DNA of 64,000 nt from Chloroflexota bacterium (GCA_029262735.1 JAJCYY010000013.1:4108-68107); one strand, 5' to 3'; positions 6,387 to 42,579 are shown, counted from the stretch's first letter. Program-made: numbers and translations. Notes: a model not told the origin generated them from the letters alone.

Positions 6387-6469
6387 CGGCCAGTTCGCTG
6401 CCCTCCCGCCAGTATGTTGACTATCTTCCACGGCCGCATCTATCATTCCGGCGTTGTCGAATAGACATT

Positions 6470-6650
6470 GCCTCCCGGGTGCCGCCCGCCTCAACAGAAG
6501 GGCGAGCGGTGAAAAGGGAAAGCGGTAAGAATCCGCTGCGGTAGCGCCACTGTGATCGGCGAGTCTGTCTGCACGAGCCACTGCTCCGGCTAACGGGAGC
6601 GGGAAGGCGCAGACAGGCGTTGGAGCCGAGAGCCAGGAGACCTGCCCGAG
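6470..6650 (+). promoter_or_regulatory. Cobalamin (B12) riboswitch aptamer
   Basis: Conserved core read directly: GGTGAAAAGGGAAAGCGGTAAGAATCCGCTGCGG...GCGCCACTGTGA, ...GAGCCACTG...GGGAAGGC, and B12-box AGCCAGGAGACCTGCC at 6631-6646. It sits upstream of a btuCFD-like operon. Confidence 0.85.
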
Positions 6651-6761
6651 AGGCTGAGTGACTGCTTCCCGCCAAGGGGGTGGCTCTCGACTGTGGGTCT
6701 CCGGGACGGTCAGTGGGTTGCACTGGTTAGCCGGTTTTAATACAGATTCACGGCAAGAGAC

Positions 6762-6790
6762 AAAACCCTGGCGTAAGCGCCGGGGTTTTT
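6762..6790 (+). terminator. Intrinsic terminator / riboswitch expression platform
   Basis: 8-bp GC-rich stem (6766-6773 pairs with 6778-6785), tetraloop TAAG, followed by T5. An A-tract 5' of the stem can extend the pairing. Confidence 0.6.
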
Positions 6791-6793
6791 CGC

Positions 6794-7876
6794 GTGCTGC
6801 GATCTACGGTACGGAACACACGCGGCTCTCTTGCCGCGAATACGGTCATCCACCGGCTCATCGCGGGCTCGGTTGTGATCGGGCTATTGCTGCTAATCGC
6901 TTCACTCGTTGCACTTTCCACCGGTCCGGTGGTCATCTCGTTCTCCGAAACGCTGTCAGCGCTGTTCGAGTGGGTCAGAATCGGAGAGTCATCGGCCACG
7001 CGGACACAGCAGGCTGTCATTGAGAACATCCGGATTCCGAGAGTGCTGATGGCGCTGGGCGCGGGCGCTGGACTGGGCGTGGCTGGAGCGACGATGCAGG
7101 GGCTTTTCCGGAACCCGCTCGCTGATCCCGGGATTATTGGAGTCTCAGCAGGCGGCGCGCTTGGTGCGGTAATCGCAATCGCCACTGGCCTGGCGGTGAC
7201 TTCCACGCTCTTCCTGCCGCTCTTGGCATTCGTTGGAGCTGCGACTGCGACTGTGATCGTGTTCGCAGTTGGTATCGCCGCCGGAGGAAGGGCTTCGATG
7301 GCATCGCTGCTGCTGGCTGGCGTCGCCGTCAGTTCTTTCTTCGGTGCCATCACTTCAGCCGTAATCATCCTCACCGCCAACCTCGAGGCTCAGCGGCAGA
7401 TGGTGTTCTGGCTGGCCGGTGGACTTGAAGGAGCGCGCTGGGAATCGGTACGCATCGTTCTGCCAATAGCGCTGGCGGGGATCGCAGTTGTTGCGGTGTA
7501 CGCCAGGGACCTGAACCTGCTGCTTGTCGGCGAAGACGAGGCAAGGTCGTTGGGCGTGCGCGTCGGATTTGTCCGTGGCCTTCTGCTCAGTGTTGCCGCG
7601 CTATTGACCGGGACCGCTGTCGCATTCACCGGGACCATCGCCTTCGTCGGTTTGATCGTGCCGCACTCAATCAGGCTCTTGATCGGTCCGGATCACAGGG
7701 CGCTTGTTCCGTTGAGCGCGCTGGGCGGCGGATTGTTCCTGCTCATCGCAGACACGTTGGCACGAAACGTGGCCAATCCGGTCGAACTCAGGGTCGGGAT
7801 TATCACCGCCCTTGCAGGCGCGCCTTTCTTCCTGTTTCTACTCGTGAAACAGAGGTCTCGAGCAGGTCTGCTGTGA
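6794..7876 (+). CDS. FecCD-family ABC permease (BtuC-like corrinoid/iron-complex importer)
   Basis: 360 aa and polytopic. FecCD-typical RIPRVLMALGAGAGLGVAGATMQGLFRNPLADPGIIGVSAG and LVGEDEARSLG. Start codon uncertain: it lies only 4 nt after the terminator T-tract. Confidence 0.85.
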   Translation: MLRSTVRNTRGSLAANTVIHRLIAGSVVIGLLLLIASLVALSTGPVVISFSETLSALFEWVRIGESSATRTQQAVIENIRIPRVLMALGAGAGLGVAGATMQGLFRNPLADPGIIGVSAGGALGAVIAIATGLAVTSTLFLPLLAFVGAATATVIVFAVGIAAGGRASMASLLLAGVAVSSFFGAITSAVIILTANLEAQRQMVFWLAGGLEGARWESVRIVLPIALAGIAVVAVYARDLNLLLVGEDEARSLGVRVGFVRGLLLSVAALLTGTAVAFTGTIAFVGLIVPHSIRLLIGPDHRALVPLSALGGGLFLLIADTLARNVANPVELRVGIITALAGAPFFLFLLVKQRSRAGLL

Positions 7877-7896
7877 GCCACAATCTGGAGGATTAG

Positions 7897-8979
7897 ATGT
7901 CTGAGTCGAAACGAACCGGCCGGGGAAGACTGATCGTAATGCTCGGCCTCGCGGGACTGATACTTGCCACGATTACCATCTCGGCGTGTTCGAGCTCCGC
8001 GTCGTCGGCAGGCGCACCGCAGCCTACCGCCACAGCCCAGCAGGAAGCCCTGCCTGGAATGGCGCGGTTCGCCGCCGTGCCGGGAATCATCGATCCGACC
8101 AATTTCGGCTGGCCGCGGGAGGTAGAAACAGGGACAGGCCGCTTCCAGATTACAGCGGCACCGGAGCGAATTTACAGCCTCTCGCTCGGGCACGCTGAAA
8201 TCGTAGCCGCGCTGCGTGGCGGCGACGTGCTGGTCGCAGCAGCCAGCTTCTTCAAGGATCCCGGCACATCTGCCTCGTACGCAGAGTTTGAAGGATTGCC
8301 GGATGCAGGAAGCGATCCCGAGGAGATCATCGGGCTTGATCCCGAATGGGTGATCGCCTCGGCATTCACGTCAGCCGACCTTGTTGCCCAGCTTTCCGGG
8401 GTCGGCATCGACGTGGTCAGGGCAAACCTTGAAGATTCTGCGCTGGGAAACGTGCCGAATATTCTTCTACTTGGTTACATGCTGGGCGAGGAACAGCGAG
8501 CCCTGGAGCTGGCTGAAGAGGTGACAAGGCGTGTCAATGCGATCTCTGATCGAGTGAATTCGTCGAATCCGGCACGGCCCAGGGTGCTGGCCATGTCACG
8601 GTTTTCCGACATCTTCGCGGCCGGTGACGGCTCTACTGAAGGCGGGATCATCGAGGCGGCCGGGGCGGTCAATGTTGCTGCGGAGGGCGGCATCGCAGGG
8701 CACCAGACCATCGGTATCGAAGGCATCGCAGCCATGAGTCCCGACGTCATCCTGCTCACGCAACCCGAACAGTCGGCGTTGGAACTGGCGGATGAACTGT
8801 ACTCAGATCCGGCGCTCGCCGAAGTGCCTGCGATCCGGGACCGCCGCGTTCTCTACGCCGACCCGACGTTCTACACCACGCTGTCGCACTGGAACGTGCG
8901 GGGGATCGAGGAGTCGGCGAAGCTCTTCTACCCGGAGCTGTTCAGTGAAATGAGCTTCGTGCCGTTCACACACCCGTAG
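7897..8979 (+). CDS. ABC transporter periplasmic/lipoprotein substrate-binding protein (BtuF/FhuD-like)
   Basis: 360 aa. Signal peptide with lipobox (LATITISAC). Operon position is between the FecCD permease and the ATPase. Confidence 0.75.
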   Translation: MSESKRTGRGRLIVMLGLAGLILATITISACSSSASSAGAPQPTATAQQEALPGMARFAAVPGIIDPTNFGWPREVETGTGRFQITAAPERIYSLSLGHAEIVAALRGGDVLVAAASFFKDPGTSASYAEFEGLPDAGSDPEEIIGLDPEWVIASAFTSADLVAQLSGVGIDVVRANLEDSALGNVPNILLLGYMLGEEQRALELAEEVTRRVNAISDRVNSSNPARPRVLAMSRFSDIFAAGDGSTEGGIIEAAGAVNVAAEGGIAGHQTIGIEGIAAMSPDVILLTQPEQSALELADELYSDPALAEVPAIRDRRVLYADPTFYTTLSHWNVRGIEESAKLFYPELFSEMSFVPFTHP

Positions 8980-22255: not shown

Positions 22256-22300
22256 GGGGTGCGGAATCCACACACCTGTTAAGACACATGCTCCGAAGAG
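22256..22300 (-). repeat. Degenerate tRNA-Leu 3' fragment (oldest att remnant)
   Basis: A 19-nt core, CTGTTAAGACACATGCTCC, is identical to the tRNA-Leu at 42494..42579 and to the fragment at 26157. The flanking T-arm and acceptor parts are decayed. Confidence 0.65.
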
Positions 22301-24741: not shown

Positions 24742-25108
24742 ATGAAATCCAGGTGGGAAATCGTTGGTTGGGTTCTGATTGTGATCGCCTTTTTTTGCAA
24801 TTTTGTGGACCCTGAACAGAGGCGGGGCGCCGCCGGGGATAGCCTTTGTTGTAGCCGGAATACTCACCGGGTTTCTGCTGGAAGGGATTGCGAGAGTGTT
24901 TCATCGCACCACGATCTTCCGCGTAGTGTTTCGGTATGAAGATGAAAAAGAGCCTGAAGAAGGTCCATCCAATCCCGGCATCACCCCTGATTCAGAAGAC
25001 CCGCGTAAGCTCATCCGAGGCGGCACCACAACAGGCATAAGAAGCGTCGACTCCCGTCGTGCCGATCTAAACTCCAATGACCCTCGTGACCATATAAACC
25101 GGCACTAG
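24742..25108 (+). pseudogene. Frameshifted paralogue of the small membrane protein at 25299..25688
   Basis: The 24742 ORF (MKSRWEIVGWVLIVIAFF...) and the 24803 ORF (...GIAFVVAGILTGFLLEG...GITPDSEDPRKLIRGGTTTGIRSVDSRRADLNSNDPRDHINRH) together align with the intact copy. The frame changes in the G/C-rich stretch around 24811-24838. Confidence 0.6.
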
Positions 25109-25298: not shown

Positions 25299-25688
25299 TT
25301 GATGCGACGATCTTCAAAAGCACGTTCAGTCAAAATTCGGTGGGAATTCGTTGGATCCATCCTGTTTTTCGGAACACTCACCGCTATTTGGTGGATCTTT
25401 GTCGACGGCGGAGTGGGGAGGATCATGGCTTTCTATAGCGCCGGATTGGTCACAACGCTACTGCTAGCGGGAGTGCTGTCCAAATTCAGTCACGTCAGAC
25501 TCGTCAGTAAAGTGTTTCCGCTCGATGAGGAAGAGCACCCCGACCCGGACCGTTCTGGCATCACGCCTGATTCAATTGATCCTCGGCAGCATATTCAAGG
25601 CGGAATAGCAACGGGCTTAAGAAGCATCGACTCCCGCCGCGCCGATCCAAACTCCAACGATCCTCGTGACTACATCAATCGGCTCTAA
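25299..25688 (+). CDS. Small two-TM protein with a conserved hydrophilic C-terminal motif
   Basis: 129 aa with two hydrophobic helices. The C-terminus GITPDSIDPRQHIQGGIATGLRSIDSRRADPNSNDPRDYINRL is conserved in the neighbouring paralogue. Confidence 0.55.
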   Translation: MMRRSSKARSVKIRWEFVGSILFFGTLTAIWWIFVDGGVGRIMAFYSAGLVTTLLLAGVLSKFSHVRLVSKVFPLDEEEHPDPDRSGITPDSIDPRQHIQGGIATGLRSIDSRRADPNSNDPRDYINRL

Positions 25689-26156: not shown

Positions 26157-26212
26157 TGGTGGGGAAGGTGGGATTCGAACCCACACGTCTGTTAAGACAC
26201 ATGCTCCTAAGG
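26157..26212 (-). repeat. tRNA-Leu 3' fragment (att remnant)
   Basis: TGGTGGGGAAGGTGGGATTCGAACCCACACGTCTGTTAAGACACATGCTCCTAAGG. This runs from the CCA end to the anticodon loop of tRNA-Leu, with a compensated T-stem variant. Confidence 0.85.
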
Positions 26213-26335
26213 TATTTTCAACTGAGTGCTAGGCGTCCAGAACGACAATCCCAAGCGAAACAGCAATAATTATGTGGCCTAACTTCGGAGCGAAAATCGG
26301 CGGAGAGACAGCGCAGCCTGCTGGTGATACGCCCG

Positions 26336-27361
26336 CTACGCAGAGGCCGCTTGATAGAACTTCTTCGCGGCAAGGAACGCGCCGATGAACCCTTTGTTTC
26401 CTATGCCCCAACTGAAGGCACCTGACGCATCGACGGCGAGCAGTTGATTCGCCATACGCTCCGCCAGTGAATCGTACTCGGCAACAGATGCCCCGACATT
26501 TTCCCGAACCTCTGCTGGTGTCGTCGCGCCGATTTTCGCGGATCGTAGCACCTGGATCGATGCGTGGTTCGCAGCCTCCAGAATGCGATGGGGGAAGTCC
26601 GGGCTGTGTGGTAAAAGCGGGCTGATGGCGACCGAGACGAAGACGCCCTCGTCCTTCAGACGTCGCATGATTCGCAGTCGTCGGTCCGGAGTGATGCCGC
26701 CACGTTCGATCTTCCGTTGTTCAGGCAGAAGATCGGAGCTGATGCTGAAGCTGACACCGACACGCCCCTTCAGTCCTAGTGCAACAAGTCGCTCCAACAC
26801 CTGAGGGTCCTCAACCACTTTTGGTGAACGCGTCTGGCACATCAAGAACACGTTCGACTGGTCGAAGACCTCAAGGTTCTCACGAGTCGTCCGCAACGTT
26901 TCCGGCATTGACAAAAAAGGGTCTGTCTTGGGGCTCATGAACACAGATGCCCCCCCAAGCCCCTTTTTTGGACGTCCTGACGGATCGAGCAGCGCCTTTC
27001 GGAGTCTTGCCGTGATTTCCGGTTTGGGAAGAAGCCAGGATCCCCATTTCCTGAACCAGTAACCGTCTCTTCCACCCGGATAATGCCCTGTCATCAAGTC
27101 CGGCACGTAGCAGAAGCTGCAACTCTTGCCCCAGAGGCAACCAATCCACGGATCGAACGTGTAGATGTTCGCCGGCGCATCGGTCGCCTCGAACTCCGGG
27201 AACGCCCGCTCGCCCGAAAGTTGTCCCCAGAAACCTGACTTCTGGTGGTTGAGCACCACCTTCTGACCCGAAGGCAACAGATCATTTTCTGGGTGCGCCG
27301 GACCGCGGAGAATCGGCTCAAATGAACCGGATAACTGTAAGGGTAACTTGAGTTGCGGCAC
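26336..27361 (-). CDS. Radical-SAM-like enzyme, SplB/COG1533 (DNA repair photolyase)-like, with a Cx5Cx2C triad
   Basis: 341 aa. DPWIGCLWGKSCSFCYVPD (C75, C81, C84). Later strand-like segments VFMSPKTDPF, VGVSFSISS and VSVAISPLLP resemble the COG1533 layout. Confidence 0.5.
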   Translation of the reverse strand: MPQLKLPLQLSGSFEPILRGPAHPENDLLPSGQKVVLNHQKSGFWGQLSGERAFPEFEATDAPANIYTFDPWIGCLWGKSCSFCYVPDLMTGHYPGGRDGYWFRKWGSWLLPKPEITARLRKALLDPSGRPKKGLGGASVFMSPKTDPFLSMPETLRTTRENLEVFDQSNVFLMCQTRSPKVVEDPQVLERLVALGLKGRVGVSFSISSDLLPEQRKIERGGITPDRRLRIMRRLKDEGVFVSVAISPLLPHSPDFPHRILEAANHASIQVLRSAKIGATTPAEVRENVGASVAEYDSLAERMANQLLAVDASGAFSWGIGNKGFIGAFLAAKKFYQAASA

Positions 27362-28117
27362 TTAAGCATCCACACTGTCAGCCGATGATGGCGAGGGAGA
27401 TAACGAATCTCGATCTAGGTAATGCCTGGCAAGCGTCGCAAGAGCGCCGCCCCGGCGAGTCGTGTCGTTCGACCGATGCAAAGCGACATCGAGTGCGAGA
27501 TTCAGCACTCGGTACTCTTCGCTGTGCAGCATAAATCCCATCGAAACCGTTTCGTTCGGAGTTTCTGTCTCTTGTCGAACTTTCTCAGAAGTATCGAAGT
27601 TGGCGATCTCGAGCAGCCTCATGATCTGGCGTTCGCTGTCCGGCAACAGCTCGCAAAGCTCTTCGGTGGAACGCCCATCAAGCAGACCGCAGAGCAGCAC
27701 AGCTCGTCGTTCCGGAATGTCTTTCCCGGAGAGGCGGTTGATTGTAGCCAGGCAAAGCGCCGTTTCCCTATCGTTCAGATTCCAGACAATGCACTGAGCA
27801 GATTCTAGTTGGAGAGCCTGCAGGACCATTAACCGATTTCTTCCATCGATTACTTGGTACTGACCGCGTACTTTAGGGTAGGGACGCACGATGAGTGGTT
27901 CATGGTAACCGGTCAGCTCAATGATCCTCCTCAACTTTGTCAGTCTGTCGGCCGGCATATGATTCGGGCAGCCCACATGAGGAACTAAGCGTTCAAGATT
28001 GATTGAGCGTAGCCTCTCTCTTGAGCATCTTCTCAACCTCCACCAACTTGCCCGATCCCCAACACGCCAATTCTGACTAACGGCTTGCTCAAGAAGCTGG
28101 TACGAGCCTGCTTGCAT
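27362..28117 (-). CDS. ParB/Srx N-terminal-domain protein (ParB-like nuclease/NTPase fold plus HTH-like region)
   Basis: 251 aa. YHEPLIVRPYPKVRGQYQVIDGRNRLMVLQAL matches the ParB N-domain pattern (DG..R). It is followed by ETALCLATINRLSGKDIPERRAVLL. Its stop abuts the radical-SAM start. Confidence 0.6.
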   Translation of the reverse strand: MQAGSYQLLEQAVSQNWRVGDRASWWRLRRCSRERLRSINLERLVPHVGCPNHMPADRLTKLRRIIELTGYHEPLIVRPYPKVRGQYQVIDGRNRLMVLQALQLESAQCIVWNLNDRETALCLATINRLSGKDIPERRAVLLCGLLDGRSTEELCELLPDSERQIMRLLEIANFDTSEKVRQETETPNETVSMGFMLHSEEYRVLNLALDVALHRSNDTTRRGGALATLARHYLDRDSLSPSPSSADSVDA

Positions 28118-29708
28118 TCCTGATATTCAAATCGAGGCTATTCTCTCCGGGTTTCCAGAGCAGATATGCATGGTTGTCCCGAAGCCGGAGTGTTCTTGAA
28201 ACGTCGACTGCCGTGATACCACCGTCGCAGTGTTCAAGAATGTGGGCTTTTAATGTCTGAGGAAACAGGTCGTAGTCTTCGATGAAAAGTAAATCACAGA
28301 CGTCAAGTAACCCGTCCAGGATGCTGGCCCCGTTCGCGGACAACAGGGACTCCTCATTGAATATCCGAGCGGGCGCATAAAAATCGTGCTCACGGCCATC
28401 ATTCGAGTCGCATCCAGTGAGGCGATGCATGCTTCGGTAGAAAGCAGAGAGTGATAGCAGTATGCAAGAACAGCTCGAATCGGCAGCGATTTGGCGGTTT
28501 TGAAATGAAACTGCTCGATCACCGTCACCGAAGCCATAGCAAACTTGACCTAAAAACTTTTCGTTGTGCACGTCAGACTTTTCGAAGGACCTGCGGGCCT
28601 TGGGCTCCATGCACAGATCGGCCCAGGAGAGGCCGGTAATATCGAATTTGCTTAGATTGTTGAGCAGCTTAGAGATGATTCCGATGCGGATACCGTTGGA
28701 AGCTGGCAGCCTGTCGAAAGAATCCAGCCAGCGCCTGTTGTCCTCGGCAAAGAACGTTACGCAGTCAAATTTCTCCTTGATCGATTCGCCGCGAAGGAAT
28801 CGCAGCGGATCCCTCACAACCAGATCCACAGACCAAACACGTACGCGGCAGGAGCCGGATTCAGCAGAGAGTCGAGTCCGGGAGCGTTTGAGCGTCGTGG
28901 AAACCAGGCTCCCGCTACCGGCTCCTATATCCACGATCTCGACGCCTCGATAGGTGTCCTTCTCGGCAGACCACTGTCGTATTACCGGATCAATCACTTT
29001 GTTCACTATGCGCTTGGCTCGCTGCTCAGATCGCGGATCGACACCGCTCGTTGCGAAGTTCGAAAATGCGTCAACTGTCAAGAAACTAGCCGTCCGTGCG
29101 CGATTGGATGCTGCCGGGAAGATCAGCAGCGACAGTTGAGAATTAGGAACCAGCGTTAATTGCCGGTAGTGGTAGAACAGCTCGGCATCTTCGCTGGCAG
29201 CTAGCATGATCAATGGAAGATATCCTGTGCTGTCGGGACTGTTCGGAGCATTCAGCTTTGCCATCAGATAAGCCGGGTTTCTGAGAGTAGTCGTCGCCCC
29301 CGCCTTTCCGTGGCTGTCTGCAGGCGAGGTCAGAATCGCAAAGCACTCGAACGCTAGGACAGTCCTCAATGCAGCTCGGTACTTCATTTCAACGCTCGTC
29401 GACACCACGGCATCCACACTGTTAAGTAATCTGAAGTAGTTGTAGCAGTAGTCAGCTACGTGGGATGAATCGAAGCCACACGCAATATATTCCAGCCAGA
29501 TTCCACGAAGGGACTCCAGACGCTTATCGACTTCATGAATGTGCAAATCCGTCACAGGGGGCCAATACTCTGCCCAGTCGGCCGTATCTATGTGAAATTG
29601 ACCTGATTGATGAACCGTTACGCTCTTGATGAGAGTAGGTTCCTGCAATGCTGATAGAAGTGACCCGCGAAACAAGGATCTTACGGTCTTGTCGGCCATG
29701 CTTGGCAA
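28089..29708 (-). CDS. Large protein with a central class-I SAM-dependent methyltransferase-like domain
   Basis: 539 aa. Motif I VEIVDIGAGSGSL, followed by VRVWSVDLV. The N-terminal roughly 250 aa and C-terminal roughly 150 aa have no motif I recognise. The 3' end overlaps the ParB-like gene by 29 nt. Confidence 0.5.
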   Translation of the reverse strand: MPSMADKTVRSLFRGSLLSALQEPTLIKSVTVHQSGQFHIDTADWAEYWPPVTDLHIHEVDKRLESLRGIWLEYIACGFDSSHVADYCYNYFRLLNSVDAVVSTSVEMKYRAALRTVLAFECFAILTSPADSHGKAGATTTLRNPAYLMAKLNAPNSPDSTGYLPLIMLAASEDAELFYHYRQLTLVPNSQLSLLIFPAASNRARTASFLTVDAFSNFATSGVDPRSEQRAKRIVNKVIDPVIRQWSAEKDTYRGVEIVDIGAGSGSLVSTTLKRSRTRLSAESGSCRVRVWSVDLVVRDPLRFLRGESIKEKFDCVTFFAEDNRRWLDSFDRLPASNGIRIGIISKLLNNLSKFDITGLSWADLCMEPKARRSFEKSDVHNEKFLGQVCYGFGDGDRAVSFQNRQIAADSSCSCILLSLSAFYRSMHRLTGCDSNDGREHDFYAPARIFNEESLLSANGASILDGLLDVCDLLFIEDYDLFPQTLKAHILEHCDGGITAVDVSRTLRLRDNHAYLLWKPGENSLDLNIRNASRLVPAS

Positions 29709-30021
29709 ATGGAACCACCCGAGTGTCCGGTGAAGAAGAGAAATATACGAATCGGGAATCGAGCTCGAGCGCCGGGCTTTTCTTGCCGGTTACGCTCCTC
29801 TCCAACATAGAAACAGGTGACAGCAAGAACAACCGGCATGTCAGGTGAGCTGACTAAACAGCGCCGACAGAGTCTGACGGCAGCGATAAAGAAGATCGCT
29901 CCTAAACAGATGAAAAGAATCGGTGACGAGATCCATTCTCAATCGTCAAACATGCCTATGAAGTGACCAACAAGCGCTAGGCGACAATTTTCAACTCGCC
30001 ACCGAGCCCACTGAACAGCAA

Positions 30022-30075
30022 TGGTGGGGAAGGTGGGATTCGAACCCACACGGATTGCTCCACATGCTCCTAAGG
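30022..30075 (-). repeat. tRNA-Leu 3' fragment (att remnant)
   Basis: TGGTGGGGAAGGTGGGATTCGAACCCACACGGATTGCTCCACATGCTCCTAAGG. The acceptor, T-arm and anticodon arm match tRNA-Leu; the variable arm differs. Confidence 0.85.
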
Positions 30076-30180
30076 GATGAAGAGGTTGTTCACAGACATA
30101 CCACAACGTCCTTCCAAGTGCGCGGCGAATGGCAACAGGTCCACAAACGACCACCTGCGTCCAAGAGTGTCGCTCGTTGC

Positions 30181-30980: not shown

Positions 30981-33020
30981 CTAACCCTTTTCATCGATTT
31001 CCGCGTCACCGTCGGTTACAGCAACAACTTCATCACCGGGGATCTGATTTGGGACAGCTACACCTGGTTCTGCAGGGCTAGCTTCGGTGACTTCAGGATT
31101 CGAGCCTGGCTCCGCCTGAGGTCCATCTTCGTTCGCTATGTCAGTGATCTCGGATACACCTGATGCGTTCACTGACGGCCCAAGCGCTGTCGCCAACCAG
31201 GCGTTGAACAAACCGTTCCCGTCGCCGCCCCCGGTCACAGAAATTTCTGGGGTGATCTTCACGTTGCCCCTTGCGACCTCCTCCAGCACCTTCAAGACGG
31301 CCAACCGCTCCGAGCCGATCACGCCTGCCTGCGCCGAGAACGCCTCGGCAGTTGCAAGGCCAACCTGCTTCACCGCCTGCGCATCACCATCAGCACGGGT
31401 GCTGGTGGAATCACGGACACCTTCAGCCTCCCTCCGGGCCGCCTCCGCCCTGCTACCAGCAATCTCTACCGACAGCTTCGCCTCTACGACCTGTGTCTGC
31501 TGGTCGGCCCGCGCCCGTTGCTCCTGGACACCGATGCGCTCCGATTCGGCGAGCGCTTCCTGCTGATACTGAGCCTGCTGCTGGGTCGCGATTTCCTTCC
31601 TCGTCTGCGTGTCCAGCAAAGACTGGTCGACCGCGATGTATGCGATCAGTAGGTTCTGTGCTTCCACGAAGTAGTGAAGAAACTCTTCGCGAGCCCTTGC
31701 CAGCGCCTGCTGCTGCAACTCAGACCTGCCCTGTACAAAAGCGATAGCCTTCTCTTCACCTGCCCTATTCCGGAATGACGAGTCGATCAGTGGGTGAACG
31801 ATCTGCTCGATCAAGTTCTCAACCGAACCAAAACGAGCGATGACGAATGGTGCGTATTCCGGCCGGATCCGAATGATCATCCGGACATCCACGTCGAGGT
31901 GGAAACCGTCCATCGAAGTCACACGCAGCTGGTTGAACTTGAAGAACTCAGCGGCTCGGCCTTCGGTGCCCGGCTCGAATTCGATCGGCACCGGTGAAGG
32001 TAGGTCCATCCTCACGTGAGGACCTGAAGCCCAGTCGATCGTCACTGCACTGGTTGGAACCAGAAACGGGTTGTAGGCAATCGGGTTCAAGTTGTACGTT
32101 CCGGGTGCCACAGGATCACGGAGGATCCCGCGCCTTTCACGGTCGGTTATCAGAAGCCCTTCAATTCCCTCGTGAATCGGCTGGCGTAGGTCCTCAGTGC
32201 TTCCAGGAATACGCGGCGTTTCGATGTTGTCATCGAGCTCCTTTCCTACGTTCGATCTGAGTACTGCAACGTACCCGGGCGGCACATCGGCAACCGGGTG
32301 CGTCTGGATCTCGAACAGCAGCGGATTGATGTAGTAGCTACCGGGCTGAAGCGTGTCCAACTGCGGACCCCGATAACCCCCACCCTCTATGAACGACTGT
32401 CCATCCTGAAAGAACCGGTACTGACGAACGCGCGTGCCCTCGTCCGAAGCAGCATCCACAGGTTTAGGCGCCACGATGTATCCGGGTGCAAGCGCCATAC
32501 CGTCTAGCGCTATGGCGACTCCCACCTGCCCCGCTTCGATCTTCGTCGCACGCGCAGTTCGAATCCTGAACAGCTGCGTGTTTATCCGGTAGACGCCCGG
32601 GCGAATGATCTCGACCTGCGGGCCTTTTTTGCCTCCGCTCTGAAGGAAGGCGCGACCATCCTGGAACGAGTCACAGTCGACTGCGTCACCCAGCAATCTC
32701 CCGGCGGGAAGCGCTTCGCCGTCGATCGATTCGACGATACCAACCTCGTCAGGGTTGATCACCGTCACCGGAACGCTTTCAAACTTCCATGTCAGCGGAG
32801 ATCGCCAGTACAGCCCCGGCTTCAATACTGAAGCGAGAATGCCCACTTCCTGGTTCCGGGCGATTATGTGTCCCTGGGGCAGCTCTTTGCCGCCCATCTT
32901 CCGGGTCAGTATTCCGACCTGGTCGTCCCGAACCAACCTGACACCCGTCGCGACAAACGAAGCGAGCGAAAAGAACGCGATGCCGGACACAATTGCCAGG
33001 CCAACTATTTCGATAGCCAT
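30981..33020 (-). CDS. SPFH/Band-7 flotillin-like protein (YqiK-like)
   Basis: 679 aa. N-terminal TM anchor. Threefold internal repeat (..G.V.......G..L..G......PG.Y.IN...F.I). An SPFH core, then a long A/E/Q-rich coiled-coil flotillin-type tail. Confidence 0.75.
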   Translation of the reverse strand: MAIEIVGLAIVSGIAFFSLASFVATGVRLVRDDQVGILTRKMGGKELPQGHIIARNQEVGILASVLKPGLYWRSPLTWKFESVPVTVINPDEVGIVESIDGEALPAGRLLGDAVDCDSFQDGRAFLQSGGKKGPQVEIIRPGVYRINTQLFRIRTARATKIEAGQVGVAIALDGMALAPGYIVAPKPVDAASDEGTRVRQYRFFQDGQSFIEGGGYRGPQLDTLQPGSYYINPLLFEIQTHPVADVPPGYVAVLRSNVGKELDDNIETPRIPGSTEDLRQPIHEGIEGLLITDRERRGILRDPVAPGTYNLNPIAYNPFLVPTSAVTIDWASGPHVRMDLPSPVPIEFEPGTEGRAAEFFKFNQLRVTSMDGFHLDVDVRMIIRIRPEYAPFVIARFGSVENLIEQIVHPLIDSSFRNRAGEEKAIAFVQGRSELQQQALARAREEFLHYFVEAQNLLIAYIAVDQSLLDTQTRKEIATQQQAQYQQEALAESERIGVQEQRARADQQTQVVEAKLSVEIAGSRAEAARREAEGVRDSTSTRADGDAQAVKQVGLATAEAFSAQAGVIGSERLAVLKVLEEVARGNVKITPEISVTGGGDGNGLFNAWLATALGPSVNASGVSEITDIANEDGPQAEPGSNPEVTEASPAEPGVAVPNQIPGDEVVAVTDGDAEIDEKG

Positions 33021-33684: not shown

Positions 33685-36600
33685 ATGACAGACCTGAATC
33701 AATCTGGATTCGTGACCAACGCTGCCGGTGCGCAGGAAAACGTTGAGCACGATGAAATCGAGTCCCAGCCTGCGAGAACAGATCCTCTGGCAAACCAGTT
33801 GCGGAGCGCGCTGGATGCTCTTCATGACATCAAGGAACTAGAACGGCATCCCCTCGCGTTCCGCCTGGCCGGTAAGTCCGAGAGCACGCCGGAGCTCCGT
33901 GCCCGTCGACTGCAAAGGTGGCTCGTAGACGCCATCAATAAGCTACGACCTGAGAATCCGGGCAGGGCACCCGATTCCCAGGAGAGCCGGTGGCATACGC
34001 TGCTGAACGCGCGGTACATCGAGGGTCTTGAGCCGGAGGTTGTGTGGAGGCGGATCGGGCACGGCCGATCAAGCTTCTTTCGACACGTAAGTAGTGGAAT
34101 TGATGAATTGGCCCGGCAGTTTCGAAACGAGACGTCCGGTGGACCCGACGCCATTCCTCCCCTGATCTCCGGCGGCTACGAATCAGAATTCGTTGGCCGA
34201 GAGCAGGAGTTCTCGGTTCTCAAGGCCCTCTACAACGAGGTCGCTTCAGGAGCCGGCGGCCGGGTCGCAATGATCACCGGTGAGGAAGGGATTGGGAAGA
34301 CCCGACTCGCTCGGGAGCTTGGCAAGTTTGTTGAGAAAGAGGGAGGCTTATTCCTCGAGGGCCGATGGGCCGCGTGGGAGGGCGCTGCTCCGTACGGCGC
34401 TCTTGCCGACAGCCTGAGACAGGGCATTCGTCAGCTTGATCCTGAGGAAGTCGATTTTGCTGTAGGTCCTTACAGGCGTGAACTGACCCGTATCCTGCCA
34501 GAACTGGCTGAAAAGCCAGAGAGCCGAACCGATGAGACGGCACAAGGTGTCGAGGGTGAACAGCTGCGCTTCTACGACGGCGTGTTCTGGCTCGTCCAGA
34601 ACCTGTCGCAGAAACAGCCGCTCGTCCTGCTTCTCGACGACCTCCACCTCGCCCCACAGATGAGTCTGCAGCTACATATCGCGCGACGCCTGCCGGAGCT
34701 GCGACTGCTCATTGTTTACGGATTCAGGGAGAACGAGTTAGCCGAGAAGACTGCCCTTTTTACCGGACGCAACGAGATGGTGCGGAACAGGCTAGTAACC
34801 GACATAGCGTTAATGCCAATCACTGAATCCCAGGTAGAGCAAATCATCGCAAACGCCTTCGAACCAGACATCGCAGCTCATCTGCGAAACCGGATTTTCG
34901 AAATTAATCGAGGCAACCCATTCTTTGTCGAAGAGGTCCTCCGATATCTGCTGCAGAACCAAATGATCCGCAGGTCCGACAGAGGATGGGAAGTCCAAGA
35001 CATCACGCATCTTGGCATTCCCGAAACAGTCAAGCGGCTTGTCCAGGATAGGGTCGACAGGCTGGGCGAAGAAGCAACAAGCGTCCTGCGGCAAGCGTCT
35101 GTGCTGGGAAGAGATTTCAGATTCGATGCTCTGACTGTGATGACCCAATTGCCCGAAGACGAGCTTGTCGAAGTAATTGAAAGGGCCGTCGCTGGCGGGG
35201 TGCTGGTCGACAGTACGCGCGCAGCTGCAGCCGAGGAGTACAGGTTCCGTGATGACCATGTCCGGGAAGCTCTGTACGACGGCATCACTTCACCCAGGCG
35301 GAGGCGATACCATCGGGCGGCTGGCGGCGCACTAGAAGAGACCGACCCGAGCAGACTCCAGGAGCTTGCATTTCACTTCACCACGGGCAGTGATCTGGAA
35401 CGTGGTGCGAAGTACTCATTCGAAGCGGCTGAACAAGCCAACGCAGCGTTCTCGTGGAACAGGGCCATACCACTATACCGTGATGCTCTCGACCTCTGGG
35501 ACGAGCTTGGCGATCACCGGGATGAACGAGCTTTGGCAGCGGAACGCCTCGGAAACGCCTGCTACAAATCAGGCATTCAAGCGCAGCGAGCTACAGGCTA
35601 CTTCCAGCAGTCCCTCGATCTCTACACGGAGCTTGGAAACGAATCCAAAGCGGCGACCATTCTCTCGGAACTCGGCCGCGAGCACATGCACAGCGGCAAC
35701 CTGGCTGCCCAGGACTTGAACTTGGCACTAAAGCACTTCACCGATGCAGAGGCGATCATCTCCCGAGAACCGGAGAGCATCAGGCACGGCATGGTGTACT
35801 GCGGACTTGCGATGGTGCACCTGGACAGGATGGAATTTCGTGACGCGCTCGAATGGGCGCACAGGGCGTTCGAAGTTGGCAAACGCATCAACGCTCCGGC
35901 TGTTATTGCGAACGCCAGCGTCCCTCTCGGCGCTGCGACGGCGATGGAGAGCGTGTCAGACGCTGCGGACATCCTGGAGCGTGGTTGGCGCACTGCCATC
36001 GAATCGGACCTCGGCTTTCAATCTGATCTATCCCGCGCTTATGCAGCGCGCGTCCTAGGAGCGATGCCGAAAGATCCGCGCACCGGCATCGAGTGGGTAA
36101 ACCGAGGTCCGCGATATGAGACTACCTATTCACTGTTCGATATTCCCGCTCACCTGGTTGCGTTCCATGCGCTGGCAGGTGAGTTCGATGAGGCAGAGAA
36201 ACACTTGGACGAGCTTCAGCGTAGGCTGGCAGCGCTCGGTCAGCCCACATTCGGGCCATGGCCGGATGAACTTGGCCTACTGTGGATCCGCACCGGACAG
36301 CTGGAACATGCCGAGGTTCAGCTTGGCAAAGCGCTGGATTGGGCGACAAATAGCGGGAACAGGCTGGTTGAAGCCGGGACGGCAAGGCGTCTTGGCGAGG
36401 TACTGACACACCTGGGTCATTACGAGGTGGCCGAAGAGAAATTCCTGCATTCGCTCAAGCTGAACCGGGCCGGCGGGAATCGGATAGGTGAGTTGGCACT
36501 TTTACCACAACTCGCGCAGCTGTACTGCGAAACCGGACGATTCAACGATGCGGAGAACACTTTGGTGCGTGCCCGCAAAGTTGAATCCGAAATCGATGCG

Positions 36601-36894
36601 CCCGGAGCGCTAAAAGGTGATCTCTTTCTCGCCAATGGAATTGTGAACGCAGGCTTCCGGCGAATAGAAGAGTCCGACAATGCATTCAGGAGCGCCCTGG
36701 ATATTTACCGAGAGTTCGATCGCCCATGGGACGAGGCTCGTGCCTACTATGCACTGGGACTGGTGACAAGAGCGATTTCAGTCAACGAGTCTGATGTCAG
36801 CCGCTCTCGGGAACTAGTAGGGAAAGCGGATTCGCTGTTCTCGTCCATCGGTGCGACATGGTGGGCGGAACGTTGTCGTCAAGGTCATGCATGA
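33685..36894 (+). CDS. STAND-type AAA ATPase with N-terminal sigma70-r4/LuxR-like HTH and C-terminal TPR array
   Basis: 1069 aa. HTH-like LNARYIEGLEPEVVWRRIGHGRSSFFRHVSSGIDELA. Walker A ITGEEGIGKTRLAREL and Walker B LVLLLDDLHLA. The roughly 450-aa C-terminal part has TPR-like repeats (A..Y...L.LY.ELG). TATAAT at 33670-33675 ends 9 nt before the ATG. Confidence 0.75.
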   Translation: MTDLNQSGFVTNAAGAQENVEHDEIESQPARTDPLANQLRSALDALHDIKELERHPLAFRLAGKSESTPELRARRLQRWLVDAINKLRPENPGRAPDSQESRWHTLLNARYIEGLEPEVVWRRIGHGRSSFFRHVSSGIDELARQFRNETSGGPDAIPPLISGGYESEFVGREQEFSVLKALYNEVASGAGGRVAMITGEEGIGKTRLARELGKFVEKEGGLFLEGRWAAWEGAAPYGALADSLRQGIRQLDPEEVDFAVGPYRRELTRILPELAEKPESRTDETAQGVEGEQLRFYDGVFWLVQNLSQKQPLVLLLDDLHLAPQMSLQLHIARRLPELRLLIVYGFRENELAEKTALFTGRNEMVRNRLVTDIALMPITESQVEQIIANAFEPDIAAHLRNRIFEINRGNPFFVEEVLRYLLQNQMIRRSDRGWEVQDITHLGIPETVKRLVQDRVDRLGEEATSVLRQASVLGRDFRFDALTVMTQLPEDELVEVIERAVAGGVLVDSTRAAAAEEYRFRDDHVREALYDGITSPRRRRYHRAAGGALEETDPSRLQELAFHFTTGSDLERGAKYSFEAAEQANAAFSWNRAIPLYRDALDLWDELGDHRDERALAAERLGNACYKSGIQAQRATGYFQQSLDLYTELGNESKAATILSELGREHMHSGNLAAQDLNLALKHFTDAEAIISREPESIRHGMVYCGLAMVHLDRMEFRDALEWAHRAFEVGKRINAPAVIANASVPLGAATAMESVSDAADILERGWRTAIESDLGFQSDLSRAYAARVLGAMPKDPRTGIEWVNRGPRYETTYSLFDIPAHLVAFHALAGEFDEAEKHLDELQRRLAALGQPTFGPWPDELGLLWIRTGQLEHAEVQLGKALDWATNSGNRLVEAGTARRLGEVLTHLGHYEVAEEKFLHSLKLNRAGGNRIGELALLPQLAQLYCETGRFNDAENTLVRARKVESEIDAPGALKGDLFLANGIVNAGFRRIEESDNAFRSALDIYREFDRPWDEARAYYALGLVTRAISVNESDVSRSRELVGKADSLFSSIGATWWAERCRQGHA

Positions 36895-38875: not shown

Positions 38876-41659
38876 CTAGCTTTCGTCCGTTGATACTTCC
38901 GGTTCTTCCAACGGTACCTTCGGATTCGTACCGCTCGTCGGCGACGCCGGGGCGTTGAGAATGGAACTCTCGAACTGTTGTTTCGCCACCTCAGCCGACT
39001 TTTCTCCAAATATGACCACCTTCTGAAGATTCGCCGCCAACACAGGATTGACCAGATCCCGGGAGTGAGAGGCCATATAAGCAGCCACGCGGAGTCTCAG
39101 CAGCAACCTCCTCAACTCTTCTTTTCCATCCCGCAAGATGATTCCATCCACCCGCTTGGGGACAGAAGTGTTGGTCGATTGGAATGTCAACAAGTCACCG
39201 CTTTCGGAAGTCTCCTCGTCCGCGTAAGTTCTGGGGTTGGCCACAATTTGCTCAGAATCTGCGATAGTAACTTTTTCTCTGGAAAGGCCTTTCAATTTTG
39301 AATCCCAAAGTTCGGCTGGTGGATTGGCGAATCCGTCAATAAAGTACTTGGGATCCCAGTTGCTCTCGTTTCCCAGGTAGCTGAAAATCCTGTTCTTATC
39401 GTCGATATCCACATCTGGTGACCCGAGCACCTGCTGCAAGAAGGCATGCGACTCTTGCCTCAATACCAGTGGGATTACCATTGGCAGGCATCCATCATCC
39501 AGAGGTTGTTTGTCATCAGTAGATTTCAGTGCGATGTCGGCGATTCGCAGTATCTCCCGAGGAACACCGCCGGCAAGCACACAAATGCCGTGTCCGACGG
39601 CTTTTGGCAGCACGTTCCGCTTCGGCAGATTTGACCTCAGCCGATCGGAACCGGGATCTGTTCGATCACTCTGTGCTGGACTATACGATTTGCTAGATGC
39701 CGAACCTCTACTTCCTGTTGACGTTGGCTCAGGTTTGATCAACTTCGAAACTACGTCATTGACGCCCCGCCTCAGTGCATCTAACAACTGTGGAAAAGTC
39801 GCTGGCGGTTGTCGTTTAGATTCGGGCACCGGTTTGTGTAGTGATACAGCGATTCGCTCATCCAACAACTTCCACGCCTCTGCAGGTCGTAGGGGACCGA
39901 ACGCAAAGACCTGGTTGAACGAGCTACTAAATTCGTCGCGTCCCCGGAAGGATCCCATTCGGTACGCGCTGGCTGCCTCATCCGAGATGGACATCAGGAA
40001 GTGAACATTTTTGGCCGCAAAGATTCCCTTGATGTCCCTCAATAGCTTTCGAACGTCCTCTTCATCGTCGATTTTATCGAGCTCATCGATGCCGATCACG
40101 ACATTGCCAAGCATCGCTTCCTGCGCCCGTTCGGCAAGATCCGCGAACTCTTTCACGAGCGAAGTTACCGTATACGGTCTTTCCACGAGCTCCTTGCTGC
40201 GGGAAAACTTCACTAGCCCCGTTAACCATTTGCCGCCCTCGGCCCCGAACTCTGAACTGCGTCGTTCGCTGCTGGAGTAGCGAACCCACTCTTTTGCACG
40301 CTCAGCGCGCCTTTTCACGACACGGAGTTGCTGGTTTCTCTGTTTCTGGTTTGTGAAATTCTTGGCAGGAATTATCAACGAAAGAAACGGGATGAATGCC
40401 AGCGCGCCTCCAGAGACTGCCGCCAATATCGAAAAGGAGTTGTAGAGAGTCATTGGCGGAGCCTGATCGCCCTCGCGGACCAGAAAGGACCAATCATGGG
40501 ACGCGGTGTACCGAATCGCGACTACCAATCCGACCCAAACTACCACTGAAAATGATGTCACCCACAACGAATCTACATTGTCGAAATTAGTCCTGATTGA
40601 GGCGCCCCGCCCTTCATATCTTGAACTCCGGGCTAAACGTCTGAGATATGACCACGTCCTTGATGGCGTATTCCTGAGGAGGGAAGGAAAACCGTACTTT
40701 AGCAACCAGTTTTCTGATCTTGATGTGTCGGATTCTGATTGTTTAGCTTGCGGCGTGCCGGAGTCTGGTAGTTCAGCTTGTGCCCTGTCGGACCCTGACT
40801 GTTCAGAAGGCGAATTGTCGGACTTCTCGCTCGCCTCTGTACCCGTGGTGACCCATTTCCATGCGAGCTGCGAAGCTACTAAGCCTGACAAAAGTGTCGC
40901 AGCCACCAGGATCAGGAATTTTAGTATCTTGCTGATGTCTGCTTGCTGGTTCGAGAACTCCCAGCTCAGTGCCGCACCCATTGCGATCAACAACAGGATG
41001 GTGACTCCGAGCAACGCATCAAAACCTACCTGTGAATACCTGATGACTGCGAACCGGTTTGGCTGCCCGTCAAATTCGGATGCGTCCAGATCCGTGGCCC
41101 CTAGTGCTACGCGCTGCCTGTTTGACCGGCGTCCCATGTACTTAATTGCTTTGCCGGTCTTTGCAACCACCGCGTCAGCCAGCGTGTATATGAGGGTTTC
41201 CAGGAATGGCAGAGCCTTGTATTCGCTGGGAACCGGAGCCCAGATTCCGACTCCGTAGTCCTCTTTGCCGGATTCAGAATGATTTCGTTGCTGGTCATCA
41301 TCGCGGGATTTCTCGTTGCTGTTTGGCCCGTCCTTTCTATTATCGTTGTTCGAATCCGACAAGTTCACTGGTTGCTGGGCATTCGCCAGATCAACGGCCT
41401 GCTGTATGAACCAGGTCTTTCCGGCTCCTCTTGGTCCAGAAACTCCGAACGAGCCTCCTTCGATTTCCAGCAACGCATCCGGGCTCTGTGATCTGTCCCA
41501 TTTCTCGAAGCGATCAGAACGAAACGAGGTGAAGACATCCGCGTTTTTGATCTTCTTCCACGTCCGGTTGTTTTCCTGCCCGCCGTCTTCCGTGGTTTTT
41601 TCGTTATCAGGGGATGTGTTTTCCACCTCGGGACCCGTTGCACCATTAGGAATTGACAT
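38876..41659 (-). CDS. KAP-family P-loop NTPase with transmembrane helices inserted in the NTPase domain
   Basis: 927 aa. Walker A VSGPRGAGKTWF at about aa 75 and Walker B VVIGIDELDKIDDEED at about aa 520. Four hydrophobic helices lie between them (e.g. LLGVTILLLIAMGAALSW, FLILVAATLLSGLVASQLAW, SFSVVVWVGLVVAI, ILAAVSGGALAFIPFLSLII). Confidence 0.7.
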   Translation of the reverse strand: MSIPNGATGPEVENTSPDNEKTTEDGGQENNRTWKKIKNADVFTSFRSDRFEKWDRSQSPDALLEIEGGSFGVSGPRGAGKTWFIQQAVDLANAQQPVNLSDSNNDNRKDGPNSNEKSRDDDQQRNHSESGKEDYGVGIWAPVPSEYKALPFLETLIYTLADAVVAKTGKAIKYMGRRSNRQRVALGATDLDASEFDGQPNRFAVIRYSQVGFDALLGVTILLLIAMGAALSWEFSNQQADISKILKFLILVAATLLSGLVASQLAWKWVTTGTEASEKSDNSPSEQSGSDRAQAELPDSGTPQAKQSESDTSRSENWLLKYGFPSLLRNTPSRTWSYLRRLARSSRYEGRGASIRTNFDNVDSLWVTSFSVVVWVGLVVAIRYTASHDWSFLVREGDQAPPMTLYNSFSILAAVSGGALAFIPFLSLIIPAKNFTNQKQRNQQLRVVKRRAERAKEWVRYSSSERRSSEFGAEGGKWLTGLVKFSRSKELVERPYTVTSLVKEFADLAERAQEAMLGNVVIGIDELDKIDDEEDVRKLLRDIKGIFAAKNVHFLMSISDEAASAYRMGSFRGRDEFSSSFNQVFAFGPLRPAEAWKLLDERIAVSLHKPVPESKRQPPATFPQLLDALRRGVNDVVSKLIKPEPTSTGSRGSASSKSYSPAQSDRTDPGSDRLRSNLPKRNVLPKAVGHGICVLAGGVPREILRIADIALKSTDDKQPLDDGCLPMVIPLVLRQESHAFLQQVLGSPDVDIDDKNRIFSYLGNESNWDPKYFIDGFANPPAELWDSKLKGLSREKVTIADSEQIVANPRTYADEETSESGDLLTFQSTNTSVPKRVDGIILRDGKEELRRLLLRLRVAAYMASHSRDLVNPVLAANLQKVVIFGEKSAEVAKQQFESSILNAPASPTSGTNPKVPLEEPEVSTDES

Positions 41660-42493: not shown

Positions 42494-42579
42494 TGGTGGG
42501 GAAGGGGGGATTCGAACCCCCACGTCTGTTAAGACACATGCTCCTAAGGCATGCGCGTCTGCCATTTCGCCACTTCCCC
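42494..42579 (-). tRNA. tRNA-Leu, anticodon UAG, type II (long variable arm), CCA encoded
   Basis: The reverse complement folds by eye. Acceptor GGGGAAG/CTTCCCC. Anticodon arm CATGC-CTTAGGA-GCATG. Variable arm TGTCTTAACAGACGT. T-arm GGGGG-TTCGAAT-CCCCC. Ends in ACCA. Confidence 0.9.

Follow-up and report, generated by a model that had tools for sequence, protein, structure and literature searches.

In a 64,000-nucleotide (nt) stretch of DNA from a Chloroflexota bacterium (GCA_029262735.1, JAJCYY010000013.1:4108–68107; the whole of it is referred to here as the window, and positions are counted from its first letter), three open reading frames (ORFs) on the minus strand, designated A, B and C, fill the region 26336–29708 and form a cassette encoding a protein with a methyltransferase-like fold (A), a ParB-like protein (B) and a radical S-adenosylmethionine (SAM) enzyme from the clade of spore photoproduct lyase (SPL) (C). 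An earlier interpretation made by a model from the sequence alone (the sequence-only reading) had put forward this trio as a candidate new system forming a tightly coupled operon, and the conservation of this operon is now apparent: A, a ParB-like protein and an SPL-like radical SAM enzyme (rSAM) are encoded together in nearly all of the 29 non-redundant cassette loci that were gathered by gene-neighbourhood look-ups and by a scan of GTDB species genomes, and this clustering is far beyond chance. Our tentative interpretation, to which we give somewhat less than an even chance, is that the cassette is a ParB-targeted radical SAM module carried on mobile DNA, which would repair or modify a DNA base.

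The three genes are real and intact in the copy present in the window, and ORF calling agrees with the sequence-only reading in their coordinates and strand. Gene A (28089–29708, minus strand) encodes a protein of 539 amino acids (aa) from a TTG start codon, or alternatively 536 aa from an ATG at position 29699; gene B (27362–28117, minus strand) encodes at most 251 aa from an ATG, its start being uncertain; and gene C (26336–27361, minus strand) encodes 341 aa from a GTG. An independent gene call on the window gave 536 aa for A (ATG at 29699) and 198 aa for the ParB-like protein. The 29-nt overlap between A and B, which had been reported earlier, hinges on the start codons that are picked: it is obtained with the longest starts, whereas the independent call gives other starts. 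The true start of B lies upstream of that of the 198-aa protein, since the shorter call would remove a conserved N-terminal box. The motifs quoted in the sequence-only reading (VEIVDIGAGSGSL, VRVWSVDLV and YQVIDGRNRLMVLQAL) were all located in the window proteins.

A word-indexed search with protein A identified 32 relatives among 5.8 billion proteins, and a full scan with a hidden Markov model (HMM) identified 403 among 1.84 billion cluster representatives, the latter all of the same architecture or fragments thereof. All 29 cassette loci (designated below, where needed, by L numbers) are from metagenome-assembled genomes (MAGs) or metagenome contigs of uncultured bacteria, mostly Dehalococcoidia and other Chloroflexota, together with Planctomycetota (including Brocadiaceae), Fibrobacterota (Chitinispirillaceae), Gemmatimonadota and Bacillota. 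The cassette is found in two forms. The usual form, type 2, is represented by 25 loci and consists, in this order, of A, an rSAM of 315–330 aa, a ParB-like protein of about 210 aa and a fourth protein, D, of about 134 aa, with neighbouring stop and start codons that overlap or almost touch; in some of these loci D is absent or the cassette is truncated by the end of the contig. In type 1, a rare form that is present in the window and in L001, L005 and L012, the order is A, ParB, rSAM, and D is absent; a tblastn search with four D proteins detected no D gene in the window. The earlier description of a three-gene system is hence correct for the window form, whereas the usual form contains four genes and its rSAM is not an orthologue of that in the window. 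D is a small, basic protein with a mean column identity of 67% and without a match in Pfam, NCBIfam or PHROGs. As the D family comprises 1,473 clusters in the set of 5.8 billion proteins, type 2 is frequent in environmental data. Neither the A family nor the D family has any annotation. One or more cassette genes were disrupted in seven of the 29 loci, the causes being DDE transposases inserted in A and frameshifts affecting A, ParB, rSAM or D (L005:4469–7884, L012:5165–6865, L001:6353–7452, L006:8001–9587, L022:10511–11144, L027:11112–11520 and L029:1576–3238). Several of these loci are from low-coverage long-read assemblies, and some of the disruptions may be sequencing errors.

The placement of C in the SplB/COG1533 branch of radical SAM proteins, as originally suggested, is supported by its matches, although these pass only the general family threshold and miss those of the curated subfamilies. 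The window enzyme scores above the threshold of the Pfam Radical_SAM model (PF04055; 4.7e-8, 33.8 bits vs. 29.5), and its best NCBIfam models are PA0069 (1.7e-15, 56.9 bits vs. a cutoff of 360), mobile-pair B and Rv2578c (31 bits vs. 430), all of the COG1533/SplB clade and all far under their cutoffs; its best PHROG match is phrog_13321 (4.5e-18). The type-2 enzymes score 101 and 90 bits against PA0069 and Rv2578c (cutoffs 360 and 430). The window enzyme does not match the SPL models PF20903 and TIGR04070; the type-2 enzymes reach 13–29 bits against PF20903 (cutoff 27), a single member narrowly passing, and at most 28 bits against TIGR04070 (cutoff 400). The only solved structure that is detectably related to the cassette rSAM is that of spore photoproduct lyase. 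The two types share only 23% identity and are distant paralogues. They also differ in the cysteine motif of their cluster: this is of the canonical CX3CX2C form in type 2, whereas the window enzyme has a non-canonical CX5CX2C (GCLWGKSCSFCY). The latter form was seen in all 69 members of the type-1 family in which the motif region is readable, out of about 95 homologues with 47–84% identity to C, the remaining 26 being mostly partial sequences. One A and ParB pair has thus recruited two different SPL-clade enzymes, and the presence of two distantly related rSAMs in the same slot suggests that SPL-type chemistry is a required feature of the cassette.

A number of other observations concern these enzymes. 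The type-2 rSAM contains three further invariant cysteines near its C-terminus (C285, C287 and C297 in the numbering of L009; CACKNPD...C), which are not present in the type-1 enzyme of the window and which could be ligands of an auxiliary Fe-S cluster or of zinc. Members of the type-1 family are also found without the cassette (L011, L035) and on a conjugative element, where a CX5CX2C enzyme without A or ParB (L034:6001–6993) follows the gene for an HTH_3 repressor and is separated by a few kb from the gene for a TraG/VirD4 coupling protein. A genuine SPL-family protein (PF20903, 5e-29) is encoded directly 3' of a cassette copy that lacks D (L014:4397–5593, plus strand), and in L024 a second, divergent rSAM gene (6566–7912, minus strand) is located inside an islet bracketed by tRNA-Lys sequences. 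Two long type-1 homologues (P0054 and P0070) were considered as possible fusions of ParB and rSAM and were rejected, as their N-terminal extensions match neither A, B nor D.

The assignment of B as a protein with a ParB/Srx N-domain is borne out by a marginal pass against Pfam ParB_N (PF02195; 5.1e-6, 26.9 bits vs. a cutoff of 26.3), with other members of the family reaching up to 29.8 bits. In NCBIfam, B comes closest to RepB, Noc and ParB, with scores under the cutoff in each case, and the best match among PDB sequences is Noc (7nfu, 4e-7), aligned over residues 27–169 with low confidence past about residue 125. The B family is characterized by the motifs PHPENSN.M, NG[HN]NR and ATLNRLSG..IPERRA. 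In place of the GERRxRA box of ParB, the window protein has DGRNRLM (family consensus NGHNRLR), and in place of box III, ENLQR, it has TINRLS (family consensus TLNRLS). It had been noted earlier that ParB domains are often fused to DNA methylases of phages, and such proteins are in fact the closest counterparts of B in two of the databases: its best PHROG match, phrog_498, is a DNA methyltransferase fused to a ParB N-domain, and its match in PADLOC is confined to the ParB-like N-terminal part of the MTase_II model.

Protein A consists of three domains, viz. an N-domain of mixed alpha and beta structure (residues 1–220), a Rossmann domain (about 225–416) and a C-domain (418–539). An AlphaFold model based upon an alignment of 25 sequences has a pLDDT of 80 and a pTM of 0.83, and in this model the central part is predicted to be a class-I SAM-binding methyltransferase fold. 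The features by which class-I SAM methyltransferases are recognized are all present, viz. a Rossmann fold, a motif I of the GxGxG type and, where strand 2 ends, an acidic residue; in the family alignment this residue (D295) is invariant, as are D260, G262, G264 and G266 of motif I, and also D315. The methyltransferase signature that had been read from the sequence thus corresponds to a fold seen in the structure model, but A is not recognizable as a DNA methyltransferase: its nearest folds are those of HNMT, NDUFAF7/COG1565, NTM1 and natural-product O-methyltransferases, and no HMM of a DNA methyltransferase family (N6A/N4C or C5) matched it. No significant family match was found in Pfam, NCBIfam, PADLOC (best E-value 0.053) or PHROGs, and no family could be assigned either when the 25 family members were scanned singly against Pfam or when the family profile was compared with all PDB sequences. 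The sole Pfam trace is to Methyltransf_28 (the COG1565/NDUFAF7 family). No match to A was detected among sequenced plasmids or phages. The C-domain contains an invariant set of aspartates (D478, D480 and D502). The N-domain, when modelled separately, has a pLDDT of 93 and is without any meaningful structural neighbour in PDB or BFVD; in particular, no recombinase-like fold was found for it by structure comparison. This domain also contains an invariant T-x-R-N-P-x-Y motif (residues 141–147, window 29265–29285), which superficially resembles the NPPY motif of DNA amino-methyltransferases, yet lies outside the Rossmann domain.

Upstream of A, a palindrome of the form AG[ACT]AC-N4-GT[GT]CT (for example, TAGAACATATGTTCT) was present in 15 of 25 related loci, compared with a background of 0.06 per kb per strand. 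It is located mostly 28–58 nt upstream of A (range 28–100 nt) and, where a -10 hexamer is recognizable (e.g., L002, L013, L015 and L023), it directly follows this hexamer. The extended form TAG[ACT]AC-N4-GT[GT]CT is found in L002, L003, L006, L009, L013, L015, L016, L017, L023, L027, L030 and L031, and variants of it in L001, L024 and L029. This palindrome matches the LexA box of the GAAC-N4-GTTC type, which is used by Firmicutes, Actinobacteria and also Dehalococcoides, and splB genes of COG1533 are LexA-regulated in several phyla (PMC4951493). Judging from this motif, the cassette is predicted to be often under SOS control, with LexA binding the palindrome. The palindrome is present without D in L001, and a subgroup consisting of L018–L022 and L026 is without it; as it occurs both with and without D, it probably does not serve as the operator of D itself. 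The window copy, unlike most type-2 relatives, has no LexA-type palindrome in the non-coding region of 313 nt upstream of the operon (29709–30021, minus strand). A second conserved element, GTGA[CT]A[ACG][AGT]A, was observed just before the -35 region. It is located about 45 nt upstream of the operator in L002, L013, L015 and L027, and about 200 nt upstream of A in L019–L022 and L026, which belong to the subgroup without the LexA-like box; it could be a binding site for ParB or D, or a UP-like element.

The location of the cassette indicates that it is carried on mobile DNA. In the window it is the whole content of a 3.8-kb interval between two 3' fragments of a tRNA-Leu gene, which bears out the earlier suggestion that the trio is the sole cargo of a tRNA-derived islet, albeit one without an adjoining tRNA gene. 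The fragment on the side of A (30022–30080, minus strand) is exact in the T-arm, acceptor and CCA and has diverged in part of the variable arm, while that on the rSAM side (26157–26215, minus strand) is 59 nt long and corresponds to tRNA positions 28–86 with 95% identity to the intact gene. A 28-nt pattern from the T-arm and acceptor is exact at both borders, where no chance matches are expected. A public contig of 3,869 nt corresponds to window positions 26183–30051 and ends in the repeat that is common to both borders. The only tRNA gene found in the window by ARAGORN and Rfam is an intact tRNA-Leu(TAG) (42494–42579, minus strand). Downstream of this gene, and anchored by it, a tandem array extends over positions 22264–42579, in which incomplete copies of the tRNA are found at 30.0, 26.2 and 22.3 kb, the last of these being a further tRNA-Leu fragment at 22264–22298. 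No integrase domain was detected in the ten largest ORFs that were scanned with Pfam across 20.6–43.8 kb, and only A, B and C are present between the repeats. The two fragments flanking the cassette (26157–26187 and 30022–30052) have GTGGG/CCCAC in the T-stem in comparison to GGGGG/CCCCC in the intact tRNA (42494–42524), a compensatory pair; as this difference is common to both fragments, it suggests that the present 3' half of the tRNA came with a later-arriving element.

Similar surroundings were seen elsewhere. Of the 28 other loci, at least 10 have a tRNA or tmRNA gene adjoining the cassette, and at least eight tRNA or tmRNA identities are found next to it across all loci. Well-supported direct repeats derived from tRNA or tmRNA (16–66 nt) bracket the cassette in L013, L023, L024 and L026, and shorter repeats (11–13 nt) do so in L003, L009, L017 and L032; in L013 and L023 the outer flanks consist of housekeeping genes. 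These repeats span the region from the anticodon loop to the 3' end of the tRNA, which is the classic footprint of a tyrosine integrase. A full integrase is encoded beside the cassette in L028, and fragments of integrases in L003 and L006. We read the islets as cargo-only units in arrays at tRNA sites, which are moved in trans or are left as remnants. Tandem tRNA arrays containing degenerate remnants without an integrase are known from tycheposons (10.1101/2020.12.28.424599).

The gene content, conservation and operon coupling of the cassette, the folds and families of its proteins, the mobility signatures and the operator motif, as described above, provide the basis of the proposed model, to which are added by inference DNA as the substrate, the formation of a complex, the chemistry and LexA as the binder of the operator. 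In this model, B would bind or clamp DNA, possibly in a nucleotide-dependent manner, and would recruit the SPL-type enzyme C, which would take hydrogen from a base substituent by means of a 5'-deoxyadenosyl radical. A would work at the same site, either as a methyl or alkyl donor or as a substrate-recognition subunit, and in the four-gene form the small basic protein D would complete the complex. The net outcome would be the removal of a lesion or adduct, or the installation of a covalent mark on a base, and in most relatives LexA-repressed expression would turn the module on upon DNA damage or the entry of single-stranded DNA. The only characterized SPL-like enzymes, SPL itself and gp53 of phage M6, both use radical chemistry, their targets being thymine-derived substituents of polymer DNA (PMC8989533), in agreement with the earlier statement that SplB-type enzymes act on DNA, and positions of the thymine C5-methyl type are the sole precedent for hydrogen abstraction by an SPL-like rSAM on DNA. 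A ParB-like partner is required by phage T-dioxygenases (10.1101/2025.08.14.668559) and in DpdA/DpdB (PMC10164549). In view of these characterized enzymes and ParB-partner precedents, and also of the operon coupling, the replacement of one rSAM by another, the SAM-binding partner and the SOS-type operator, the model of a ParB-targeted radical SAM enzyme is the most economical one. Such a module might benefit the host by damage tolerance, the mobile element by protecting or establishing DNA that enters a cell, or defence. That the cassette represents the first cellular ParB-guided radical SAM system for installing or erasing a DNA base modification is possible, but we consider it doubtful.

Several observations weigh against this model. 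DNA as the substrate is something that we infer; both cassette rSAMs fall far short of every curated family cutoff, and in type 2 the residue that aligns with the catalytic Cys of SPL is the P or S of 'SPSSD'. B is devoid of the GERR and ENLQR residues found in CTP-dependent ParB clamps, the fold neighbours of A such as HNMT and NDUFAF7 are methyltransferases of small molecules and proteins, and the catalytic motif IV of DNA methyltransferases, (D/N/S)PP(Y/F/W) or PC, was not found after strand 4 of A. Additionally, the window copy has neither a LexA-like box nor a D gene, the palindrome could belong to a regulator other than LexA, and the broken genes in seven loci may reflect either assembly errors or real decay. 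Alternatively, the target could be a protein, an RNA or a metabolite; for example, A would methylate a protein in the manner of NDUFAF7 and the rSAM would modify the same target, with B acting as a kinase or NTPase like SerK, SbnI or sulfiredoxin. The structural neighbours and the Pfam trace of A are consistent with a target of this kind, as are the loss of the CTP-clamp residues and the weak matches of B to SerK and SbnI. However, these latter matches are not significant (E-values of 0.1–0.15) in comparison to those with RepB, Noc and ParB (1e-7 to 1e-12), the characterized members of the rSAM clade all act on DNA (PMC8989533), and both the predicted LexA control and the location on mobile elements fit better with DNA transactions; hence, we regard a target other than DNA as quite improbable.

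The sequence-only reading had also considered an anti-mobile-element role for the module, and of that proposal the conserved mobile unit matching no described system has stood up better than the defence function. In a modification type of anti-phage or anti-plasmid defence, self DNA would be marked or invading DNA damaged, with B or the C-domain of A serving as the nuclease. The cassette is indeed located in variable regions rich in mobile elements, in conflict systems a ParB/Srx protein may act as a nuclease or an NTPase (PMC10853773), the C-domain of A has an invariant D-x-D...D set, and frequent gene decay is typical for defence genes. Further, a scan for neighbouring defence genes, as had been recommended, revealed a complete Gabija system (L018:670–4301; GajA 1e-227, GajB 2e-264) in a MAG of Gemmatimonadota, where it lies upstream of the cassette at a distance of about 1 kb, and the pooled flanks gave matches to AbiE, DarG and AriA-like proteins, integrases and insertion sequence elements. 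However, a known defence system is located within 3.3 kb in only a few of the 29 loci, many flanks contain housekeeping genes (e.g., truB and genes for ABC transporters), the cassette encodes no recognizable nuclease, toxin or abortive-infection effector, and PADLOC gave no match for A or C and for B only the one noted above. A LexA-type operator is unusual for a constitutive innate defence, and its occurrence in 15 of 25 related loci suggests a link with DNA damage at least as strongly as one with defence. A defence role is therefore weakly supported, and we consider it unlikely. It is also conceivable that the cassette proteins, none of which is a known recombinase, themselves excise and integrate the 3–4 kb islet at the 3' ends of tRNA or tmRNA genes upon DNA damage. 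The repeats that bracket the cassette without an integrase inside (in the window and in L013, L023, L024 and L026, with shorter ones in L003, L009, L017 and L032), the diversity of the adjoining tRNA and tmRNA genes and the housekeeping flanks of L013 and L023 could be explained in this way. On the other hand, the extent of the repeats is that expected of a tyrosine integrase, a real integrase or fragments thereof adjoin the cassette in L028, L003 and L006, both orientations relative to the tRNA are seen, several loci (e.g., L016, L020, L022, L027 and L031) are without a nearby tRNA, the N-domain of A shows no recombinase-like fold, and integrase-less remnants in tandem tRNA arrays are already known (10.1101/2020.12.28.424599). 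Such an autonomous element is thus very improbable.

In addition to the cassette, the tandem array in the window contains two other islets. The first, of 12.4 kb, encodes a KAP NTPase (38876–41659), an MFS protein, a STAND protein of the AAA_16-TPR type (33685–36894) and an SPFH protein (30981–33020); it is followed by the cassette as the second islet (3.8 kb) and by a third of 3.9 kb with unknown genes. In the islet beside the cassette, two paralogous small predicted membrane proteins (24803–25108 and 25299–25688, plus strand) share the C-terminal motif GITPDS.DPR..I.GG..TG.RS.DSRRAD.NSNDPRD.INR and have no Pfam match. At 6460–6663 on the plus strand, there is a cobalamin riboswitch (Rfam RF00174, 110 bits) that has no relation to the cassette.

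The significance of the cassette lies in the fact that only two radical SAM enzymes, SPL and gp53 of phage M6, are known to act on DNA, while the COG1533 'DNA repair photolyase' clade is large, SOS-regulated in many phyla and without an assigned substrate. By linking an SPL-like enzyme to a ParB-like partner, a SAM-binding protein and a predicted LexA switch, the cassette provides a compact entry to the function of COG1533 proteins on DNA. If its product is a base modification, it would widen a rule now emerging, in which DNA-modifying enzymes are escorted by proteins of the ParB fold; if it serves in repair, anaerobes such as Dehalococcoidia would possess a repair module that can be passed on horizontally. 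The tRNA-bracketed islets without an integrase, in turn, offer a clean case for examining how cargo-only islets move.

As suggested by the sequence-only reading, the cassette does not correspond to any described system. No system was named for A, B or C by PADLOC-DB v2, which covers R-M, Dnd/Ssp, Dpd, BREX, DISARM, viperin and others, and neither Pfam and NCBIfam, nor PHROGs in the case of A, supply a name; a description of the cassette was likewise not found in the literature on ParB in combination with radical SAM and methyltransferase proteins or with defence. Ophion and HXS were considered as possible matches and were rejected, as these rSAM systems are unrelated to the cassette. Its parts are nevertheless from known superfamilies, and the presumed logic of a ParB escort together with a DNA-acting enzyme has precedents. 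Among the known systems, SPL/SplB (PF20903, TIGR04070; PDB 4FHC and related structures) has in common with the cassette rSAM the TIM barrel of its radical SAM core and the cluster loop GC..C..CY, and it acts directly on DNA. However, SPL works alone, whereas the cassette enzyme has ParB-like and methyltransferase-like partners, and SPL has CX3CX2C in contrast to the CX5CX2C of the window enzyme. The gp53 protein of phage M6 (PMC8989533), an SPL-like rSAM isomerase of thymidine hypermodification that remodels a base substituent on polymer DNA, can be likened to the cassette enzyme by kind, and its gene shares an operon with those of further modifying enzymes in a mobile genome; the M6 pathway, however, depends on 5-hmdU, a 5-HMUDK kinase, aGPT-Pplase and a PLP decarboxylase, which are all absent from the cassette. 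Among curated families, both cassette rSAMs score best against PA0069, Rv2578c and 'radical SAM mobile pair B' (NF033668, NF038135 and TIGR04470; COG1533), but scores of 57–101 bits in comparison to cutoffs of 360–430 place the cassette enzymes in separate subfamilies; the LexA regulation of COG1533 genes in many phyla (PMC4951493) parallels the cassette operator.

The other components and the genomic setting also have known counterparts. The class-I methyltransferases of the NDUFAF7/COG1565 (Methyltransf_28) and HNMT types share only 10–12% identity with A, which differs from them by two additional conserved domains without known relatives. The arrays of tycheposons (10.1101/2020.12.28.424599) arise by successive integrations downstream of one tRNA, with partial tRNA repeats between the islets, and the tRNA copies at 22.3, 26.2, 30.0 and 42.5 kb in the window resemble this pattern; the host lineage and the cargo are different, and no integrase is present among the ORFs scanned in the 20-kb array. 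From Noc and the chromosomal ParB clamps, B has kept the ParB_N fold, the G-x-x-R motif and the Asn of box III, whereas the Glu of box III is missing, and the cassette has no ParA partner and no identified parS site. In the 5mYOX T-dioxygenase with its ParB (10.1101/2025.08.14.668559), in DpdA/DpdB (PMC10164549) and in the DNA methyltransferases fused to a ParB N-domain (phrog_498; PADLOC MTase_II), a ParB fold is found beside a base-altering enzyme, as in the cassette. No Pfam domain of a TET/JBP dioxygenase or a TGT-like transglycosylase is present in A, C or D; the partner of the ParB-like protein in the cassette is instead a radical SAM enzyme together with a methyltransferase fold of a non-DNA type, and the arginine patch and ENLQR box of ParB are altered.

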